Origin: a virus
IMG/VR virus record: IMGVR_UViG_3300034198_012226
Location: 1 to 64,000 of that record
Direction: 5' to 3' (one strand)
Length of the DNA stretch: 64,000 nt
Below the pieces are notes generated by a model. That model was given only the letters and a program-made list of their open reading frames with translations. It had not been told where the DNA came from and ran no database searches. Each line of letters opens with the position of its first letter. Position 1 is the stretch's first letter. A program made the translations under genes and the position numbers. This document shows positions 42,851-50,730 of the stretch, piece after piece.

Positions 42851-43381
42851 CTAGGTCATCGGAAAGAATCCGGTTGACTGTAACGCGGCCTTTGCTGTAG
42901 GAAATTCGGGGCAATCCCGCATGTCCCAGGAGGTGACGCCGGACTCGAAGTATTCGACCGGGGCGACCCGCCACATGCCGGTGGCCTTGAACAACACCAG
43001 GACGAAAGGATCGGCACCGGCCATGGCAAGTTTGCGCAGGTTCGGGAGCTGATCCAGAGCGTCCTTGGACAGCAGGTAGCTGCCGTTCTTGGTCTTGTGC
43101 TCCGTGGACTTGACCTCCAGCGGGATCGAGACTCGGCGCAGCTCGGGGTGCCGGTACCAGATGTAGAAGTCAGCGATGGCCGACTTCATCCGGCCCATGG
43201 CAGCTCGGGCATCTGGCGGTCGATCCCAGGCGAAAGCGGCCAGGTTGTTCCACTCGGTGAGCACCTCGATCACCAGCTTCTCGGCCGTCTTGCCGCGTTG
43301 GCCGACCTCCTCTTTCTTGATCGGCTTCGGCCTGGCGATGGCACTGGCACCGAGGACGCGGGGTTTCTTCATTCCGACCAT
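42851..43381 (-). CDS. Putative Holliday junction resolvase (RecU-like PD-(D/E)XK)
   Basis: RGKTAE...ADF...EVKST...Q pattern. Confidence 0.65.
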   Translation of the reverse strand: MVGMKKPRVLGASAIARPKPIKKEEVGQRGKTAEKLVIEVLTEWNNLAAFAWDRPPDARAAMGRMKSAIADFYIWYRHPELRRVSIPLEVKSTEHKTKNGSYLLSKDALDQLPNLRKLAMAGADPFVLVLFKATGMWRVAPVEYFESGVTSWDMRDCPEFPTAKAALQSTGFFPMT

Positions 43382-43755
43382 GGTGGCCCCTCTTTCTTCG
43401 CGGGGTGACCTTCAGGCAGCATGGCCTGGGCCACCTTCTGCGCCGCCTTCTTTCGCCCGCCACCCTTCTGTGCCGGTGGCGTCCAGGTCGGCCCCATGAT
43501 GCGAACCAGGGACTCGGTGTTGAGGGTGTCTTTCCAGGCCGGAGGTGGCAGGCCATTGGCCATGGCCACCACGTCCTCCAGGTGGCAGGCGATGATGCCT
43601 TCCTTCGCACCTTTCACATGCGCCGAACGGTTCTTCGAGAAAGGCCACCAGTTGACCATGGTGGCGCTGCCGGTGACCTGGAAATGGCCGGGACTCGGCT
43701 CTTTCAGCTCGACTCCGAGCTGCTTCAGTGCCGAGCGAATCTGCTCGTCGTTCAT
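43369..43755 (-). CDS. Hypothetical protein
   Basis: ATGA overlap with the polymerase stop; GGAGG SD; HFQVTG..MVNWWP. Confidence 0.6.
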   Translation of the reverse strand: MNDEQIRSALKQLGVELKEPSPGHFQVTGSATMVNWWPFSKNRSAHVKGAKEGIIACHLEDVVAMANGLPPPAWKDTLNTESLVRIMGPTWTPPAQKGGGRKKAAQKVAQAMLPEGHPAKKEGPPWSE

Positions 43756-46037
43756 GCTGCCTCCAACATGGTTGCCTTGGCCTTGCTGAACACCTCGTCC
43801 AGCGCCGCCTTGATGTTTTCTTCGATGAACCAGTCGCCGCATTCGATCTGCTCGCCGAAGTTCGGGCCGAGGGAGATCGAGGACATGCAAGGGACGGTCA
43901 TGTCGTGGTACTGCTTCGTCATGCACTCGTGGATGATGCGGATCGCTTCCACGGCGTGATCCTTGTGGATCGAGAAAACCAGCTCGTCGTGAATCGGCGC
44001 GATGAAGCGGCAGTCGAAGTCGAACAGCACGCCGCTGTCCCAGACACGAGCCATGGCAAGTTTGGTCTGCTCTGCCGACGAACCCTGGATTTCAAAGTTC
44101 GGACCTTGACGACCGGCCTTGTTCGCGGTCGAGCGATCCTGCAACAGCTTGGCCAGGTGGCGACGGGCACCCATCAGGGTCATGGCGTAGCCGGTCTCCT
44201 CGACACGGGCACGCACGCTGTCCTTCCACTCGGTCACGCCGGGGAACATCTTCTCGCGGGCATCCAGGAAGTCCTGGGCGTCCTTCACCGGGATCACAAT
44301 CGTGTACGCCAGGGTCAGCGCCTGGGCGTCATACTGTGCGCCGAAGTTCACGTTCTTCGCCACCTTGCGGAGGTCGTCGGCCATCTTGGCGATGGCTTCC
44401 TCGTCCCACTTGCGCAGCTTGATGAAGACGGTGTATTCGATCTCCTCGGCGGTGCCGGTGAAGTTGGCCGCGCCGACCATCGACTTCAGCTCCTCAACCT
44501 TGTCCTTGCCCCACTTCTTGAGCATGGCACCGGCAGCGGTGATGGAGTGCGGGTCTTTCAGGTTGTCGCCGATGTAGCAGGCGAGCATGTTGCGATCCTG
44601 GGACATGTGGGCCGCGAGCCTCAGCTCCTGACCCGAGAAGTCCAGCGACACGATCACGGCGTCCTTGTGGTGCGGCACGATGATCTCGCGCACCTTGATG
44701 CCTTCACCCTTCTTCGGGAGCTGCTGCAAGTTCGGGCCGGACGACGAGTAGCGGCGCGTCACCGTCGCGCACTGATTCATGGACGAGTGCAGCTTGCCGT
44801 CCTTCCAGTGCTTCAGGTACGGGTACGGGTTGTAGTACAGGCCGCGCTTCGTCATGACCTTCTTCATCGCGGAGATGCAGTTCAGGATCACTTCGAGGTC
44901 GGGGTCTTTGTCCTTGTCGTACAGCAGGGCGAAGTCGATGGCGGTGTCGTCGGTGGACGCTTTCGTCCGCACCAGTGCCCACTCCTCCGGCGAGAGCTGT
45001 GGCTCCTCGCCAGCCATCAGGAACTTCTTGAATTTGCTGACGGCCTTCACCAGGTCGCGGTTGAACTTGTAGTTGTCCTCGGTCAGCGCCGACGTGACGC
45101 GGATCGGCAGCTTCAGGATGTCGTACATGAAGACCTTCATCTTCTTGGCCGACTTCACGTCGATGGCAGGCTCGGACTTGTACTTGTTGAACAGCAGGCT
45201 GTTGATGTAGCGGACATCGCCGCGCTCGACCGCATCGCAGAAGTTGGCAAGTCCTGCGTCGCTGCCGTCCGTGCCCGACTCGGTCATGATGTCCATGGCC
45301 AGGACGTTCAGCTTGTGCTTCTTCGACGTGGGCCGGAAGCCGAACAGGTCTTCGCAGGCGTCCTTCACGGTGGCGTTGGTGCATTCCGTGAACGGCTTCC
45401 AGAGCTGATCCAGGATGCCCTTCTGCACCAGGACATCAGTCAGTGTAGCCCTGGCCCTCTCGAAGGCTTTGTCGTCCTCGCGCTCCAGTTGCTTGAGGCG
45501 CTCGACCGAGACGTTACAGCCCTGGACATACGAGTGTGCGGTCATGTAGGCAGGCTTCACCTCGACCTGTTCGTACACGCCCATGGTCTTCTCGATCTCC
45601 ATCACGAGGCCATAGAAGTTGTAGAGCGCAGCGGTGCAGATGGTGTCGTCGGCACCGTAGGCCAGCACGTCCTCGGCTTCCAGCTCGTTCATGCGGTACT
45701 GCTTGGAGACGATGCGATCCTTGAACGCCATCTTCAGCTCGTGCATGTCCTCGTAGCCGTGCTTCTCAAGGGCCTGCTTCTGCTTCTTCGGCGGCATCTC
45801 GGCGATGCGGTCGATGTTGATCTTCCAGGTATCCTCCACGATCTTGCCGCCCACTGGCAAGTCGTAGAGCCGGCCGGTCTTGGTCGTCACTTCCTTGTAC
45901 GAGACCTGGTCGTAGTTCAGCCAGAGCTTGGAATTCTGCTTCAGGCCATTGCTCCAGTTCTCGTCCACGTAGGACGACATGATCTTCGTGTCGTGGGCGT
46001 TCGACATGAAGCCACGGTAATCGGCGGCACCCATCAC
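43752..46037 (-). CDS. polA: Family A DNA polymerase, C-terminal part (ExoIII motif plus polymerase domain)
   Basis: YGADD (ExoIII), TRRYSSSGPNLQQLP, motif A DFSGQELR, motif B RKVAKNVNFGAQY, motif C IHDELVF. Confidence 0.92.
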   Translation of the reverse strand: MMGAADYRGFMSNAHDTKIMSSYVDENWSNGLKQNSKLWLNYDQVSYKEVTTKTGRLYDLPVGGKIVEDTWKINIDRIAEMPPKKQKQALEKHGYEDMHELKMAFKDRIVSKQYRMNELEAEDVLAYGADDTICTAALYNFYGLVMEIEKTMGVYEQVEVKPAYMTAHSYVQGCNVSVERLKQLEREDDKAFERARATLTDVLVQKGILDQLWKPFTECTNATVKDACEDLFGFRPTSKKHKLNVLAMDIMTESGTDGSDAGLANFCDAVERGDVRYINSLLFNKYKSEPAIDVKSAKKMKVFMYDILKLPIRVTSALTEDNYKFNRDLVKAVSKFKKFLMAGEEPQLSPEEWALVRTKASTDDTAIDFALLYDKDKDPDLEVILNCISAMKKVMTKRGLYYNPYPYLKHWKDGKLHSSMNQCATVTRRYSSSGPNLQQLPKKGEGIKVREIIVPHHKDAVIVSLDFSGQELRLAAHMSQDRNMLACYIGDNLKDPHSITAAGAMLKKWGKDKVEELKSMVGAANFTGTAEEIEYTVFIKLRKWDEEAIAKMADDLRKVAKNVNFGAQYDAQALTLAYTIVIPVKDAQDFLDAREKMFPGVTEWKDSVRARVEETGYAMTLMGARRHLAKLLQDRSTANKAGRQGPNFEIQGSSAEQTKLAMARVWDSGVLFDFDCRFIAPIHDELVFSIHKDHAVEAIRIIHECMTKQYHDMTVPCMSSISLGPNFGEQIECGDWFIEENIKAALDEVFSKAKATMLEAA

Positions 46038-46639
46038 TGGCCTCCCTTTACGTGGTCACGGATCAAGCCGGTCACCATGGCCGCGTCCTCGGCACCCAGG
46101 TCGCGGCGGCGTGCGGCGCTGACGATCTCGATGATGCGGGACAGGCGGTACGGCAGCTTCCAGCGGTCGATCACTTCCATGGCCGTCAGACGCGCCACGC
46201 GGCGCTCCACGGGCCTCACGACCGTTTCCGGCTCTGGCTCCCACCCGCCGCGCCTGAGCACATCCACGGCCTCCTCCGGCGAAAGCACGGGGGCTACGAC
46301 CAGCTCGGCCACGACCGAGTCCGTTGGGGCTTTCTCCGCTGCGATCAGTTCGCGCTCGGGTTCCGGTGCCGGTGCCAGGTTGGCGTGGGTCGGGGCTTCG
46401 TCAAGGCGATGCCCGCCGACCGTGTGGGTGTACAGCGAGAAGAAGACGTAGAAGAAACGACCGTTGCCGCCCTTGACCGAGACGCGGTTGATGCGCCGGT
46501 CGTCAAACAGTTCCTTGGTCGCAGCCTTCAGGTCTTCAACGTCGAACATGTGCATGTCCTCGGCCATGACCGTCATGGGCACGCCGTTACGCATACTGTC
46601 CAGATAGTCAACGATATTTTTGTGGATGTCGGTCATCAT
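46034..46639 (-). CDS. Hypothetical protein within the polA split (possible winged-helix N-terminus)
   Basis: Coupled by 4-nt overlaps on both sides; phage-like codons. Confidence 0.6.
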   Translation of the reverse strand: MMTDIHKNIVDYLDSMRNGVPMTVMAEDMHMFDVEDLKAATKELFDDRRINRVSVKGGNGRFFYVFFSLYTHTVGGHRLDEAPTHANLAPAPEPERELIAAEKAPTDSVVAELVVAPVLSPEEAVDVLRRGGWEPEPETVVRPVERRVARLTAMEVIDRWKLPYRLSRIIEIVSAARRRDLGAEDAAMVTGLIRDHVKGGQ

Positions 46640-46863
46640 TTCTCCAGCAGCGCACGGAACTTGCGCTTGCAGATGGTGCAGTTGTTGTGACTGTTGTGCT
46701 TGTCGTTCTCAGTGGTGCCGGTCAGCCTCGACCAGTTGCCACAGACCGACCGGCCATTCGCTTTGATGAGGTGCCACCTGGCCCTGCCGTTGGGAGCACC
46801 AGGCTTCCACCACCCGAGGAACCCCTCGGGCAGCGGGGCATCGTTGAATTCGGTATCGGTCAC
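46636..46863 (-). CDS. Small putative zinc-binding protein within the polA split
   Basis: WHLI...SVCG...CTIC (H/C/CxxC). Confidence 0.6.
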   Translation of the reverse strand: MTDTEFNDAPLPEGFLGWWKPGAPNGRARWHLIKANGRSVCGNWSRLTGTTENDKHNSHNNCTICKRKFRALLEK

Positions 46864-46865
46864 GA

Positions 46866-47243
46866 CTAGTCCTTCGTCACGATGGTTTCGGTGTGCTGCT
46901 CGGTCTTCGTGCAGTTCTTACCGCAGGACTTCTTCACCTCGTAGTTCCGGTCGGTCGTGACCATACCGGCGCAGCGGGTGAAGTAGTGCTCCTTGCTGCC
47001 AGCCGTGAAGGCATACACCTTGCAGCCGTCAGCCTCGCGGATCACATGCGGGATTCGGGCACGGCGCTCGGCTTCGGCGGTGGCGCGGCGCTTCGCCTCG
47101 GCTTCCGGCGTGGTCTCGCAGTAGGTGATCGCCGACAGGACGACCACAACGACCCCGAAACCAGCCGCCAGAGACTTGTCCCGCCACATGCCCAGGCCCA
47201 TGATCACCAGGCCGATAGCGACTCCGATCAGTGGCCCGTTCAT
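46866..47243 (-). CDS. Membrane-anchored Cys-rich hypothetical protein within the polA split
   Basis: Two N-terminal hydrophobic segments; DGCKVY...YFTRC; ATGA overlap with the upstream stop, AGGAG SD. Confidence 0.65.
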   Translation of the reverse strand: MNGPLIGVAIGLVIMGLGMWRDKSLAAGFGVVVVVLSAITYCETTPEAEAKRRATAEAERRARIPHVIREADGCKVYAFTAGSKEHYFTRCAGMVTTDRNYEVKKSCGKNCTKTEQHTETIVTKD

Positions 47244-48601
47244 TCGTCGCACTCCTGGAGTGGGCCGAGCTGCGCCATGATGATCGGCAGCTCGAAGGAC
47301 ACGTTCTGGATCGCCTTGACCTTCGACTTGGGCAAGGCTTCGAGCACCTGCTTGGCCTGGGCCTTGCTGATGTTCTTGATCTTGTCCGTCTCGCGGTGAT
47401 TGACCGTGAAGAAGCAGGTGTACTGCATGTTGCGACCGAACGTCAGCGAGAACGAAGTCAGCTCGGCACCGAACACGTCAACCGATTCAGCATCCTTGGA
47501 CTCGTTGGACTTGGTCTTGGCCGTCTCCAGCCACTGCTCGGCGGTGTCGGTGGCACTGGTCTCGATGTCGAACGAGATGAACGGGGATTCGCTGATGTGC
47601 TGCTTCATCCAGTCGAACGCTTGCTGGAAGTTCGCGGCGTGTACCAGGCGCACCGCACCGGCCCAGTGATTCAGGCGTTCGTCCTGGATCAGGCCACGCG
47701 GCTTGACCATGCCTGGCGTCCATTGCAGCGGCCTGCGCACGGTGTTCACCAGGTTCGGGTACAGCCTGGCACAGCGATACGACTTGTAGACCATCTCGCG
47801 GTTGTCCAGGATTTTCTGAAGCGGCTTGAAGTTCGGCACGTCTTCTTCGAGGGCGCTCAACTGCTTCGTCAGGATCAACTGCTCGATGGTGGCAAGGTCG
47901 TTGTCGTCGTAGTTGCAGAGGAAGTCCAGCCAGGTCTTTTCGCCGAAGCCCTTGGCACCGGGAATCTTGTCGCCGGTGTCGCCGACGATGGCTTTGTAGA
48001 TCGGGACGTAGCGGCAAGCGAACGGGCCGTATGGGTTCTCGACCACGCGCTGACCCTTGCTCTGCTTCCAGATCGTCACGTCCTTAGTCAGTGTAGTCCC
48101 GTCCGACAGTGCCGTCGCCAAGTCGCCGTCGTTGGAGTCGATGATCTTCTCGCCGTCCAGGTGCATACACAGGTACATGATCACGTCGTCGGCCTCGATA
48201 CCGTCCTGGGTGACCGCGATGGCACCGAGCGAGGTGAAGACCTGGATGATCATGTCGCGCAGCTTCTGGAACTCGATGTACGCCTCGTCGGGGCGATCAC
48301 GACCGGCTTTGTACTGCGGCAGGATGTTCTGGCGCATCAGCTTGCTGTTCAAGCCTTCGACCACCAGGATCATGTCCATCGGCCCCATCTCGAACTGGTT
48401 CAGCACCGAGACGAAGTGGTTGATCAGGTTCTCGTAGCCGTACTGGGCGCTGTTGACCAGCACCTTCTTCGGCTCGGGCTTCGGATTCTTTTCGGTAGGC
48501 TCAGGGGTGAACATCACTTCGATGCCGAACTCCTTGTCCTTACCCGCCAGGAGGGCCGTCCACAGCATGGACGACATGTCAACGATCAGGCGCTTTCGCA
48601 T
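47240..48601 (-). CDS. polA: Family A DNA polymerase, N-terminal part (5'-3' exonuclease plus ExoI/ExoII of the 3'-5' exonuclease)
   Basis: IEADDVI, DSNDGDL, H3TH IVGDTGDKIPGAKGFGEK; then FDIETS (ExoI) and IQNVSFELPII (ExoII) just before the stop. Confidence 0.85.
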   Translation of the reverse strand: MRKRLIVDMSSMLWTALLAGKDKEFGIEVMFTPEPTEKNPKPEPKKVLVNSAQYGYENLINHFVSVLNQFEMGPMDMILVVEGLNSKLMRQNILPQYKAGRDRPDEAYIEFQKLRDMIIQVFTSLGAIAVTQDGIEADDVIMYLCMHLDGEKIIDSNDGDLATALSDGTTLTKDVTIWKQSKGQRVVENPYGPFACRYVPIYKAIVGDTGDKIPGAKGFGEKTWLDFLCNYDDNDLATIEQLILTKQLSALEEDVPNFKPLQKILDNREMVYKSYRCARLYPNLVNTVRRPLQWTPGMVKPRGLIQDERLNHWAGAVRLVHAANFQQAFDWMKQHISESPFISFDIETSATDTAEQWLETAKTKSNESKDAESVDVFGAELTSFSLTFGRNMQYTCFFTVNHRETDKIKNISKAQAKQVLEALPKSKVKAIQNVSFELPIIMAQLGPLQECDE

Positions 48602-48643
48602 TTCTTTTCTCCAAGTTTAGGGCCGCTGTTTGCGGCCCTGGTT

Positions 48644-48943
48644 TCAACGTCGTTTTGGTTCTCGCTTGGACTGGCAGTCCACGCAGCGTATCCGGCCCAT
48701 CTCCATCCGGAGGCGGGGGAGCGGCTCGCCGCAGTCGTCCTCGACGCAGTCGGGGATCGGGAAGACGCCGGTCGCTTCGTCCTTGCGCTGATAAATCCAG
48801 CCGCCCTCGCCGTCAGGGATGCGCTCAGGCTGCGACGCCTCGCGGGCACGCTTGACGTGCTCGGCGGTGTCGCGCATGGCGATCTCGGTGCCACGGTCGA
48901 TGTCGTCGGTGCGGCTCATGTCGCCGAATTCGTCCATGCTCAT
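48644..48943 (-). CDS. TraR/DksA-like C4 zinc-finger protein
   Basis: N-terminal DDIDRG (DxxDxA-like) and CVEDDCGEPLPRLR...RCVDCQ. Confidence 0.75.
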   Translation of the reverse strand: MSMDEFGDMSRTDDIDRGTEIAMRDTAEHVKRAREASQPERIPDGEGGWIYQRKDEATGVFPIPDCVEDDCGEPLPRLRMEMGRIRCVDCQSKREPKRR

Positions 48944-49614
48944 GGCTGGAACCCTCCGATGCAGGTGCCGTTGTCGGTGCCGATGCGCAGGCCACCGCTG
49001 AAGGGGATCGAGATGCCGTGGACATAGGCGTCCCTGGCCTGGACACCCGAAACGGTGTTGACGCCAGCGATGGCCGCAGCAGTGCGCTGGCCGATCTGGG
49101 AGGCGATAATGCTGCCACTGACGGTCAGACCACCAGGACCGACCTGGAAGGACATGGCGGGCTTTTCCTGGGTCACCAGGACGTGGTCGCCGATGGTGTA
49201 GTGCTTCGGCTTGCGATCCGCATACTGGGCTTCCAGCTTCGGGATCAGGTGGTTCCAGTCGTTCAGACCGGCGACGACCTTGGTGCCATTGAACTGGCGG
49301 TCGTCAATCAGGGTGCCGCAGACCTTGGCGTCGATGATGATGGCAAGGCAGGCCAGGCAGTTGCCCAGGTGCGGGGTGCCATCTTCAGGATCGGTCTCCT
49401 CGCCTTCCCACCACTTGTAGCCGTGGCGAATGAATGCGTCGAAGTAGATCGAGGCGTAGACCGGGGTGGCACGCCAGTTGGTGCGGCCATACTTGGTCTT
49501 GCCTGCGAACAGCGCCATAGCGCCCTGGAGGATCGCCGAGACTGGGAACAGAGCCAGGGGCGGCTTGGTGCGACCGATCAGGTCTTTGGGATTGCGTGGA
49601 TCAGGGGTTGTCAT
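48940..49614 (-). CDS. dATP/dGTP diphosphohydrolase-like (DUF5664-type) protein
   Basis: NPKD..G..K.PL.L.P...GKTKYGRTNWR...RH...WWEGE..DPEDG.PHL...ACLAII. Confidence 0.8.
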   Translation of the reverse strand: MTTPDPRNPKDLIGRTKPPLALFPVSAILQGAMALFAGKTKYGRTNWRATPVYASIYFDAFIRHGYKWWEGEETDPEDGTPHLGNCLACLAIIIDAKVCGTLIDDRQFNGTKVVAGLNDWNHLIPKLEAQYADRKPKHYTIGDHVLVTQEKPAMSFQVGPGGLTVSGSIIASQIGQRTAAAIAGVNTVSGVQARDAYVHGISIPFSGGLRIGTDNGTCIGGFQP

Positions 49615-49718
49615 TATTTCTTCTCGTCTCGGGTAATAAAAATCGCGGCCGAAATTCCCGTAGGAATCGTTGCCGCGAGGAAGCATATTACCCGAATTTT
49701 TCTTCAGTGCAAGGGCTT

Positions 49719-50009
49719 TCAGCGTGTACGCCACACTCGGACGCCGTCCTGCTCGCCCTTGTCTTCCTGCCCAGGCACGACCTCGGCCAGGCTGCGGATC
49801 GTGAAGTCCTTGCCATGGCCCTTGTCGGACTTCTTGTAGCGTGTGATGGCCGAGTTGATCGTGTTCGTGTTCGCCCCGGCGATGAAGAACGAGTGCTCAA
49901 CTTCCATCGAGTCGAACGGGTAGATCGGGCGGCGACCGCCGTGATGCGGGATCGGCGGGATGGGCACGCCGGACTGGACGATGACCGTGCCAGCTTCGTG
50001 ATTAGACAT
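49719..50009 (-). CDS. Small putative DNA-binding protein
   Basis: GVPIP...YPFDSMEV..SFFI...FTIR...GVRVWR pattern common in phage small proteins. Confidence 0.6.
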   Translation of the reverse strand: MSNHEAGTVIVQSGVPIPPIPHHGGRRPIYPFDSMEVEHSFFIAGANTNTINSAITRYKKSDKGHGKDFTIRSLAEVVPGQEDKGEQDGVRVWRTR

Positions 50010-50730
50010 TCGGTTTCTCCTTCAAAATGATGTGTGGATGCAACAGCTTGACGCTGTAGGCCAGGTCGGAATCGACCCCTTCGCCATCCTGGCGCTGGAG
50101 CCACTGCCAGAACGATACAGGCACTTCTTCGAGAGGCTTGCCCTTGTACTTGGCCGAGAACGGCATGACGGCGACCCTGGTCGGCTGGTACTGATAGTCC
50201 AGCAGCTCACGGACGGTCATGCCGGTCTCGCGGACGATCAGGCGCAGGAGATCGACGGTGTCCTCGACATCATCAAGTGCCGAGTGCGAGGTGCCGTCCC
50301 GGCGACCCAGGCCGAACATGAACTTGAGCGTGGCCAGCTTGTGGTTCTCGGCCTCGGGCCAGACCTTGCGAGCCAGGCGCAAGGTGCAAAGAGCCACCGA
50401 GTTCGGCCCGAACTTGTGCTTGACCTTCGGGAAATCGAACGGCGCATTGTGGCAGACGATGATCGTATCCACACCCTCGAAATGCCCGTCGAGCACCTGG
50501 TCGAAGTATTCGTCCAGGGTCGGCTCATTGGCGACCATCTCGTTGGTGATCCGGTGAACACCCATGGCACCGAACGAGATTTTGACCTCGGGGTCGATCA
50601 GCGAACGAAGGCGATGCACCTCGTGCAAGGTGTCTTCGTCCAGCTCAATGATGCCGATCTCACAGACACCGACAGGTTCTTCGAGGCCGGAGGTTTCGGT
50701 GTCGAGGACGACGAGCTTTTCGAGTTCCAT
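50002..50730 (-). CDS. DEDDh 3'-5' exonuclease (ExoX/DnaQ-like)
   Basis: LDTETSG, HNAPFD, CTLRLAR, HSALDD; C-terminal MPF..KYKG..L..VP ExoX-type tail. Confidence 0.9.
   Translation of the reverse strand: MELEKLVVLDTETSGLEEPVGVCEIGIIELDEDTLHEVHRLRSLIDPEVKISFGAMGVHRITNEMVANEPTLDEYFDQVLDGHFEGVDTIIVCHNAPFDFPKVKHKFGPNSVALCTLRLARKVWPEAENHKLATLKFMFGLGRRDGTSHSALDDVEDTVDLLRLIVRETGMTVRELLDYQYQPTRVAVMPFSAKYKGKPLEEVPVSFWQWLQRQDGEGVDSDLAYSVKLLHPHIILKEKPNV

Follow-up and report, generated by a model that had tools for sequence, protein, structure and literature searches.

Phage genes in pieces and the polymerase of this genome

Phage genes and polymerases in pieces have been described before. In Aeromonas phage Aeh1, the ribonucleotide reductase is encoded by the nrdA-a/mobE/nrdA-b arrangement known as "genes in pieces" (Friedrich et al. 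2007, as cited in PMC2988022), and insertions of free-standing endonucleases were reported to split both Aeh1 nrdA and the T4 topoisomerase (Edgell, Gibb and Belfort 2010, PMC2988022). Here, we analyzed a 64,000-nucleotide stretch of viral DNA (positions 1 to 64,000 of the IMG/VR record IMGVR_UViG_3300034198_012226, hereafter the window), in which the gene polA, encoding a family-A DNA polymerase (Pol I), is cut inside its 3'-5' proofreading domain into two open reading frames (ORFs), called part A and part B, with three small genes (g1, g2, and g3) between them. What appears to be new here is a cut within the DEDD proofreading domain of a family-A polymerase; a published cut inside the PolA proofreading domain was not found in the main text of open-access articles, and such a case may nonetheless exist in print. 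The window is the first 64 kilobases (kb) of a single-contig phage genome of 86,481 bases, rated 100% complete and carrying direct terminal repeats, for which a close cultured relative was not found (no match with megablast; best tblastn matches approximately 27% identical).

The locus resembles Aeh1 nrdA in several respects. In both cases, an essential gene that is whole in relatives is cut into two cistrons at a functionally critical region, an HNH endonuclease lies in the cut in some genomes, the pieces would have to reassemble, and overlapping stop and start codons suggest translational coupling (PMC2988022, for Aeh1). Three traits of a gene in pieces, namely a gene whole in relatives, separate cistrons, and nothing lost, are present, and a fourth, an endonuclease in the cut, is absent from the window but was found at three related loci (L042, L055, and L064). 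The differences are that a family-A polymerase is cut here within a DEDD domain, that the gap of the window holds three other small genes and no endonuclease, and that the split is fixed in a deep clade and recurrent in several lineages. In addition, the function of the divided Aeh1 enzyme was shown biochemically (PMC2988022), whereas the phage described here is known from sequence and models.

A replicative phage polymerase made as two chains is also known from the family-B enzyme gp43A/gp43B of Aeromonas phages 25 and 44RR, the chains of which co-purify and are active (Petrov et al., in PMC2988022). As at the present locus and its relatives, the gap occurs with or without an endonuclease, the polymerase family and the position of the cut being different. 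Since one relative carries an endonuclease in the gap of gene 43 and another does not, the order of events can be unclear (PMC2988022), and the same caution applies to the clade of the window.

Other family-A polymerases have also been found in pieces. The PolA of Pseudomonas phage LUZ24 (Bruynoghevirus, NC_010325) is annotated as gp25 ("exonuclease subunit"), gp34 ("part II"), and gp36, and is similar to our case in being spread over a number of cistrons, the gaps of which contain series of small genes, among them those for the HNH endonuclease gp30 (PF13392, 5.9e-08) and a membrane protein. It differs in that gp25 shows an ExoII-like HN..DYD and an ExoIII-like Y...D, a weak motif reading for which the alignment was not significant (hhalign probability 0.44%), and in that, on this reading, the cuts seem to be located past the exonuclease domain and within the polymerase domain. 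In clade B of the T7-like cyanophages, the PolA exonuclease domain is whole and occupies its own ORF, apart from the polymerase (PMC12695635), and in MEP401-type OM43 phages, the cut in PolA falls within the polymerase domain, where a small ORF separates the pieces and no intron has been shown (PMC10580990). Both groups have a family-A polymerase over two ORFs, but their proofreading active site is undivided. Finally, "fractured genes" combine split inteins with a free-standing endonuclease (PMC2677866); the likeness lies in a two-piece gene whose halves flank a homing endonuclease gene, but the intein halves ligate the protein in that system, and neither intein sequence nor room for it was found here.

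Division of the proofreading domain between two proteins

Part A (47240-48601, minus strand, 453 residues) comprises a 5'-3' exonuclease domain and the N-terminal half of the proofreading domain, followed by a short acidic tail, and part B (43752-46034 from the ATG at 46034, minus strand, 760 residues) comprises the C-terminal half of the proofreading domain and the polymerase domain. Part A matched the Pfam 5'-3' exonuclease family PF02739 above its curated cut-off (3.4e-12) and PF01367 at 6.7e-07, with 30.2 bits that fall below the curated cut-off of 40 for this family; PHROGs agreed with Pfam (phrog_107, 6.6e-22). Part B matched DNA_pol_A (PF00476) at 2.1e-62, and Taq and Klenow matched the clade profile of part B at approximately 1e-44. 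All on the minus strand, ExoI (FISFDIETS with D345 and E347, 47555-47581) and ExoII (IQNVSFELP with N433 and E437, 47285-47311) are located in part A, and ExoIII (LAYGADDTICT with Y126 and D130, 45633-45665) in part B, together with polymerase motif A (VIVSLDFSGQELR with D465, 44619-44657), motif B (DDLRKVAKNVNFGAQYDA with R556, K560, and Y568, 44325-44378), and motif C (IAPIHDELVFS with H682, D683, and E684, 43971-44003). The polymerase motifs A, B, and C, the 5'-3' exonuclease domain, and the DEDD motifs expected of a family-A polymerase were thus all found, the last being shared out over two proteins; instead of a single polypeptide, there are two ORFs 1.2 kb apart. Part B carries the sole DNA polymerase domain of the complete genome. 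A second polymerase that would make the split one dispensable was considered and rejected, as neither PolB (PF00136) nor Pol III alpha (PF07733) was found in the genome.

A preliminary description of this DNA had placed the split inside the proofreading domain, and the alignment to uninterrupted homologues that it had proposed as a check was clean. In BLASTP comparisons with the Pol I of Pseudomonas phage Lana (1221 residues, uninterrupted), the match to part A stops at residue 447 and the match to part B starts at residue 449; with the uninterrupted Pol of Vibrio phage K478b (1326 residues), the corresponding residues are 480 and 500. The two parts thus abut, with neither loss nor duplication relative to these homologues, and the residues past the homology are limited to seven on part A (PLQECDE) and approximately five on part B.

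The catalytic positions are strictly conserved on both chains. D345, E347, and E437 were invariant in all 28 split-form part A proteins, as were Y126, G127, D129, and D130 of the exonuclease and D465, R556, K560, Y568, H682, D683, and E684 of the polymerase in 20 of 20 sequences of the part B clade. The mean majority fraction was 0.62 for both the exonuclease half and the 5'-3' exonuclease of part A, and 0.75 for the head and ExoIII region of part B versus 0.79 for its polymerase core. When the window was compared to L003, a related genome with the same break, the ratio of nonsynonymous to synonymous substitution rates (dN/dS) was 0.26 for each proofreading half-domain, with a dS of 0.64-1.0 there, and by this measure both parts are under purifying selection. 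Because the catalytic residues of this conserved site lie on two chains, the chains would have to come together.

A structure model of the two chains, also suggested in the preliminary description, supports binding of part A and part B. For part A residues 305-453 with part B residues 1-210, the interaction prediction score from aligned errors (ipSAE) was 0.80, 0.76, and 0.77 (median 0.77), versus 0.00 for the best of three controls; a mark of 0.77 was reached by 58 of 80 solved complexes and by 2 of 110 mismatched pairs. The runs showed at least 82% contact agreement and a partner predicted local distance difference test (pLDDT) of at least 74. In the model, strand 428-431 of part A lies against strand 13-16 of part B, and the ExoI strand against the ExoIII helix. 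We also modelled with AlphaFold the intact domain of the fused homologue L050 (35-row alignment; pLDDT 90.5, predicted template modelling score 0.83), the fold of which is that of a DEDD domain, matching ExnV1 (5e-12) and, at about 5e-08, phage G20c Pol I and Klenow. The ExoII residues start a helix (residues 125-140), which is followed by a 12-residue loop (141-152, ADDPVYHGFLPN) and a strand (153-155), and on this model the break falls either at the very end of the ExoII helix or within the following loop, before the next beta-strand.

Taken together, these data make it likely that the two ORFs encode a working two-chain Pol I whose composite proofreading site forms in trans, which was also the explanation put forward in the preliminary description as a heterodimeric enzyme. 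A single replicative family-A polymerase would be made as two polypeptides from one five-cistron operon, with part A bringing D345 and E347 of ExoI and E437 of ExoII, and part B bringing Y126 and D130 of ExoIII and the polymerase. The two half-domains would fold into one domain, both joining the chains and rebuilding the proofreading site. Several observations weigh against this picture. The complex model may pass through the likeness of the joined halves to solved single-chain exonuclease domains, and it was computed from alignments of our own, so that the calibration is only rough. The dS of 0.64-1.4 between the window and L003 also makes the dN/dS values rough, and low values were not obtained for the 5'-3' exonuclease of part A (0.46), g1 (0.42), or g3 (0.43). 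In principle, proofreading in trans could also come from a separate DEDD exonuclease, the gene for which (50002-50730, minus strand; RNase_T, PF00929, 4.7e-19) is located 1.4 kb upstream of part A. Finally, with regard to the origin of the split, an endonuclease gene was found neither at the junction of the window nor at those of L003 and L004, the loci of its clade with known context.

The separate exonuclease would also fit a scheme in which the proofreading domain is dead, part A being only a flap or 5'-3' exonuclease and part B a polymerase without proofreading, with vestigial half-domains that need not associate. We consider this quite unlikely: all five acidic or tyrosine DEDD catalytic positions are invariant across members that have diverged to 36-60% identity, which is not expected of a dead site, the half-domains are conserved as well as the catalytic cores, and a lone half of a DEDD fold would probably be unstable. 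Moreover, a similarly annotated stand-alone exonuclease adjoins the uninterrupted polymerase of phage Lana, so the gene at 50002-50730 is probably no substitute for the split domain. A single chain could alternatively be restored via an intron, a split intein, ribosomal bypass, or frameshifting, and group I introns or inteins are indeed frequent in phage polymerase genes (PMC8351571, PMC10580990). However, no group I or II intron was detected in 43000-49500 with Rfam under permissive filters (E<=1), the sole match being a chance-level small nuclear RNA (E 0.76), no Hint or intein family was found on the five proteins encoded by the locus (Pfam at E<=0.1, PHROGs, and NCBIfam), and no endonuclease family was found on any of them with the same three collections, in agreement with the preliminary description, which had seen no homing endonuclease, no intein termini, and no non-coding room for an intron core at this locus. 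With only seven and approximately five residues exceeding the homology, there is no room for split-intein halves; the 1.2-kb gap consists of three conserved, coupled coding genes, and at L004 the genes of the two parts overlap with no insert, leaving nothing to remove. The unusual splicing or bypass that the preliminary description had considered is thus very unlikely.

As the genome is a metagenome assembly, an artefact, which the preliminary description had named as a possible refutation, or a recently broken and decaying gene was also weighed against the two-chain enzyme. In run X3, from a different study, a 36,308-base contig covers 43751-48800 with the same gene order, its two main pieces showing 143 and 48 differences, respectively, and in run X4, from a third study, a contig bridges 45875-47488; this run is labelled RNA-Seq but was judged to be probably DNA. 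The strain in X3 and X4 is approximately 95-96% identical to the window with no insertions or deletions listed, and no contig joining part A directly to part B was found in these two runs. L003 is an independent genome with the same break, the genome of the window is rated complete, and purifying selection acts on both parts. The artefact was therefore rejected, and the probability of this explanation, decay included, is close to nil.

Two further features of the chains were noted. An insertion of approximately 50 residues is present in the second half of the proofreading domain, at about residues 59-111 of part B (45702-45860); it was found only in the closest relatives of the window and in P0085, and its majority fraction was 0.34, compared to 0.75 on either side. 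In most clade members, both chains also end alike, part B with ...EAA or ...AA, the last two residues being invariant or nearly so, and part A often with ...EAA, ...EAE, or ...EVE. These similar C-termini may be a shared C-terminal signal or a coincidence.

Recurrence of the break and contents of the gap

Among 76 matches in a search with part A, 34 (the window's own counted) were stand-alone proteins of 420-475 residues covering at least 97% of part A, with an identity down to 36% and many on contigs of approximately 85 kb. All 28 that were aligned terminate at the same place, past ExoII and a short, mostly acidic tail. The part B search gave 19 stand-alone proteins of 712-762 residues in the clade of the window (again counting its own), and also many uninterrupted proteins of 1110-1250 residues. 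Viral and metagenome collections, which share some contigs so that the loci are not all distinct, yielded 126 loci, 110 of them uninterrupted, 6 split, and 10 cut off by the end of a contig. A further 36 loci comprised 32 uninterrupted ones, 3 split ones on contigs already counted, and 1 without a part B match. In the genome collection (16 loci), the reading frame is continuous across the junction in L129-L132, the matches of L133-L143 are confined to a portion of the 5'-3' exonuclease, and L144 shows only partial matches to both parts.

Besides the window, five distinct split contigs with known context were obtained: L003 (identical to L049 and L145), L004 (identical to L146), L042 (identical to L148), L055, and L064. 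L003 (68% and 80% identical in the two parts), an independent genome of 86.8 kb, has four genes in the gap, encoding homologues of g1 (55% identical) and g3 (41% identical), and a 120-residue and a 154-residue zinc-ribbon protein; g2 has no counterpart there. The gap of L042 holds a single gene, for a 221-residue HNH endonuclease (phrog_374, 4.7e-55), which is coupled to part A through an ATGA overlap and overlaps part B. L055 and L064 carry an HNH gene homologous to that of L042, the L055 protein having 218 residues and 38% identity (E 4e-43). The endonuclease-in-break state is therefore seen today at the same site in lineages other than that of the window. In L004 (53% and 58% identical), the gap contains nothing: the stop codon of part A and the start codon of part B overlap as ATGA (L004 9329-9332), with part B in a different frame from part A, an arrangement that bears on a possible ribosomal frameshift to a full-length protein. 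Elsewhere in the phage's own genome, comparison with the L042 and L055 HNH proteins gave only a weak match, to the L042 protein at 79207-79464 beyond the window (27% identity over 86 residues, 4e-06), and the phage may thus hold an endonuclease gene away from the junction.

The X3 and X4 contigs revealed one more variant of the gap, in which 187 unrelated letters take the place of 47076-47240, a stretch that covers the beginning of g1 with its membrane span and has a boundary exactly at the stop codon of part A. This swap marks a mosaic boundary at the split junction and shows the same turnover of junction content. It had been implied in the preliminary description that the three small genes split the polymerase. 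Because L004 is bare, L042, L055, and L064 hold an HNH gene, and L003 holds a different set of four genes, we conclude that g1-g3 did not cause the cut and, as judged from these comparisons, are later passengers at an existing junction where the gap content turns over.

Trees of the part B region were computed with FastTree (124 rows) and by a short IQ-TREE search (LG+G4, 49 rows, with Shimodaira-Hasegawa-like approximate likelihood ratio supports only). The clade of the window received full support and had a long stem (0.46-0.48) in both trees. In the FastTree tree, it contains 21 split rows and one uninterrupted row, P0094, which lies inside the split clade by FastTree and in an unresolved basal polytomy by IQ-TREE; P0094 may simply keep the ancestral fused state, and we claim neither re-fusion nor retention. 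Outside this clade, split forms stand singly beside uninterrupted sisters (L055 and L064 beside P0142, L042 and P0144 beside P0153, P0180 beside P0183, and P0185 beside P0177), and both P0180 and P0185 begin exactly at the same junction. Well-supported branches of the IQ-TREE tree force at least five changes between the fused and split states at this loop. An approximately unbiased test rejected the tree grouping all 23 split rows (log-likelihood 1907 lower, p 7.6e-100), a group that was defined after the first tree was seen, though by an independent trait. The fused P0142 and the HNH-split L055, with an identity of 96% for part B and 87% for part A, form a before-and-after pair at the protein level: the linker reads FELPVLFNEWGADWADDPEYHGFL in P0142, and FELPVLYTSLGEL followed by a stop codon, the HNH gene, and then MNAVSDLWHGFL in L055. 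According to these trees, the split at this loop arose repeatedly, and the clade that includes the window is old and split in nearly all of its members.

By analogy with the loci that carry the endonuclease, we lean slightly towards a homing-endonuclease origin of the split in the clade of the window: a free-standing HNH homing endonuclease gene would have invaded the site and then been lost or replaced, the split would have been inherited within the clade, and the small genes would have settled at the junction later. A credible but weaker candidate is that the same two-chain enzyme arose through a minor change in the loop, for example a nonsense mutation or a frameshift accompanied by a new start codon, with small genes arriving later and no homing endonuclease involved. 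In favour of this, L004, a member of the clade, has no insert, a stop/start overlap, and part B in another frame; an endonuclease was present in none of the three clade loci whose context is known (the window and its relatives L003 and L004, among 19 split part B proteins), and gene 43 of phage 44RR is split although it contains no endonuclease, which means that such enzymes may also enter genes that are already in pieces (PMC2988022). However, breaks in this loop occur in at least four additional lineages, each with fused closest relatives, and those of these loci with known context (L042, L055, and L064) hold homologous HNH genes exactly in the break. Random mutations are not expected to recur so precisely, even if selection for a permissive loop could contribute. 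A more speculative and rather doubtful idea is that the break is not just a scar that the phage tolerates but acts, within an essential operon, as a landing pad with translational coupling. Genes settling there, in the window those for a membrane protein, a zinc-ribbon protein, and a possible winged-helix protein, would be assured of co-expression with the replicase and set the level of part B relative to part A. The ratio of the two could then tune the share of polymerase with a complete proofreading site, making the mutation rate of the phage adjustable, or the passengers could be replisome accessory factors.

A two-chain enzyme of this kind would mean that two proteins can share an active site that normally lies within a single domain, here the DEDD proofreading site of Pol I, with selection maintaining it over a long time. 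The loci form a natural series, from uninterrupted to endonuclease-split, bare split, and passenger-filled split genes, with which the fragmentation of essential genes by selfish endonucleases, and its aftermath, can be tested. For annotation, calls of a "5'-3' exonuclease" and a "DNA polymerase" of this type should be read as probably one enzyme. Pol I-type enzymes may also tolerate splitting at the break loop, which could serve protein engineering.

Operon layout, neighbouring genes, and other loci

The locus consists of five minus-strand ORFs lying head to tail in the order part A, g1, g2, g3, and part B. This arrangement agrees with the preliminary description, but two of the starts given there, GTG at 46037 for part B (43752-46037, 761 residues) and GTG at 47252 for g1 (46866-47252, 128 residues), were revised. 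The start of part B is most likely the ATG at 46034, as a GGAGG ribosome-binding site read from the sequence (46041-46045, minus strand) lies six bases before it, within the end of g3, and that of g1 is most likely the ATG at 47243, which overlaps the stop codon of part A as ATGA. The other joints are a two-base gap between g1 and g2, an ATGA between g2 and g3, and a TGATG between g3 and part B. The 1.2 kb separating parts A and B is entirely coding, confirming the earlier view that it is packed with three coupled ORFs, and the overlapping and adjacent stops and starts suggest that the small genes are expressed through translational coupling. A consensus scan of 43400-49200 detected neither a sigma-70-like promoter nor, on the coding strand, a terminator-like site, which is not evidence of their absence.

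The g1 gene (46866-47243, minus strand, 125 residues) encodes a small membrane protein that is DUF4884-like, with an atlas feature score of 0.91, a structural template modelling (TM) score of 0.71 to a DUF4884 phage cluster, and a weak Pfam match to PF16225 (0.077). The g2 product (46636-46863, minus strand, 75 residues) is Cys-rich and zinc-ribbon-like and matched phrog_2358 at 1.7e-06; the possibility that it is a decayed HNH protein was rejected, as it does not resemble the L042 HNH endonuclease. The g3 product (46034-46639, minus strand, 201 residues) matched no family in Pfam, PHROGs, or NCBIfam, and the leads to a winged-helix N-terminal domain were weak (atlas scores <=0.85, TM <=0.37).

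Several proteins related to part A have other architectures. P0037 and P0043 (763 residues, approximately 38% identity) contain the 5'-3' exonuclease, the whole proofreading domain, and the start of the polymerase, and stop just past ...TVTRRF(S/T)SS.PK, pointing to another recurrent site of breakage, within the polymerase domain and in other lineages. P0041, P0042, P0046, and P0051 (628-690 residues) combine a part A-like N-terminus with a C-terminal region unlike part B and a coiled acidic tail. The uninterrupted L129 and L130 are found on betaproteobacterial assemblies, namely a 560-kb contig of a metagenome-assembled genome and a 195-kb Variovorax paradoxus contig, and the reading frame of L129 stops approximately 250 residues beyond the junction. 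Their placement may reflect the hosts used by this phage group as a whole, or else copies that were integrated or co-assembled.

Upstream of the polymerase operon, a 99-residue ORF with no family match (48644-48943) is followed by a second ORF (48940-49734, minus strand) that carries the N-terminal domain of a dATP/dGTP diphosphohydrolase (PF18909, 3.2e-23). Enzymes of this type accompany modified-base DNA in some phages.

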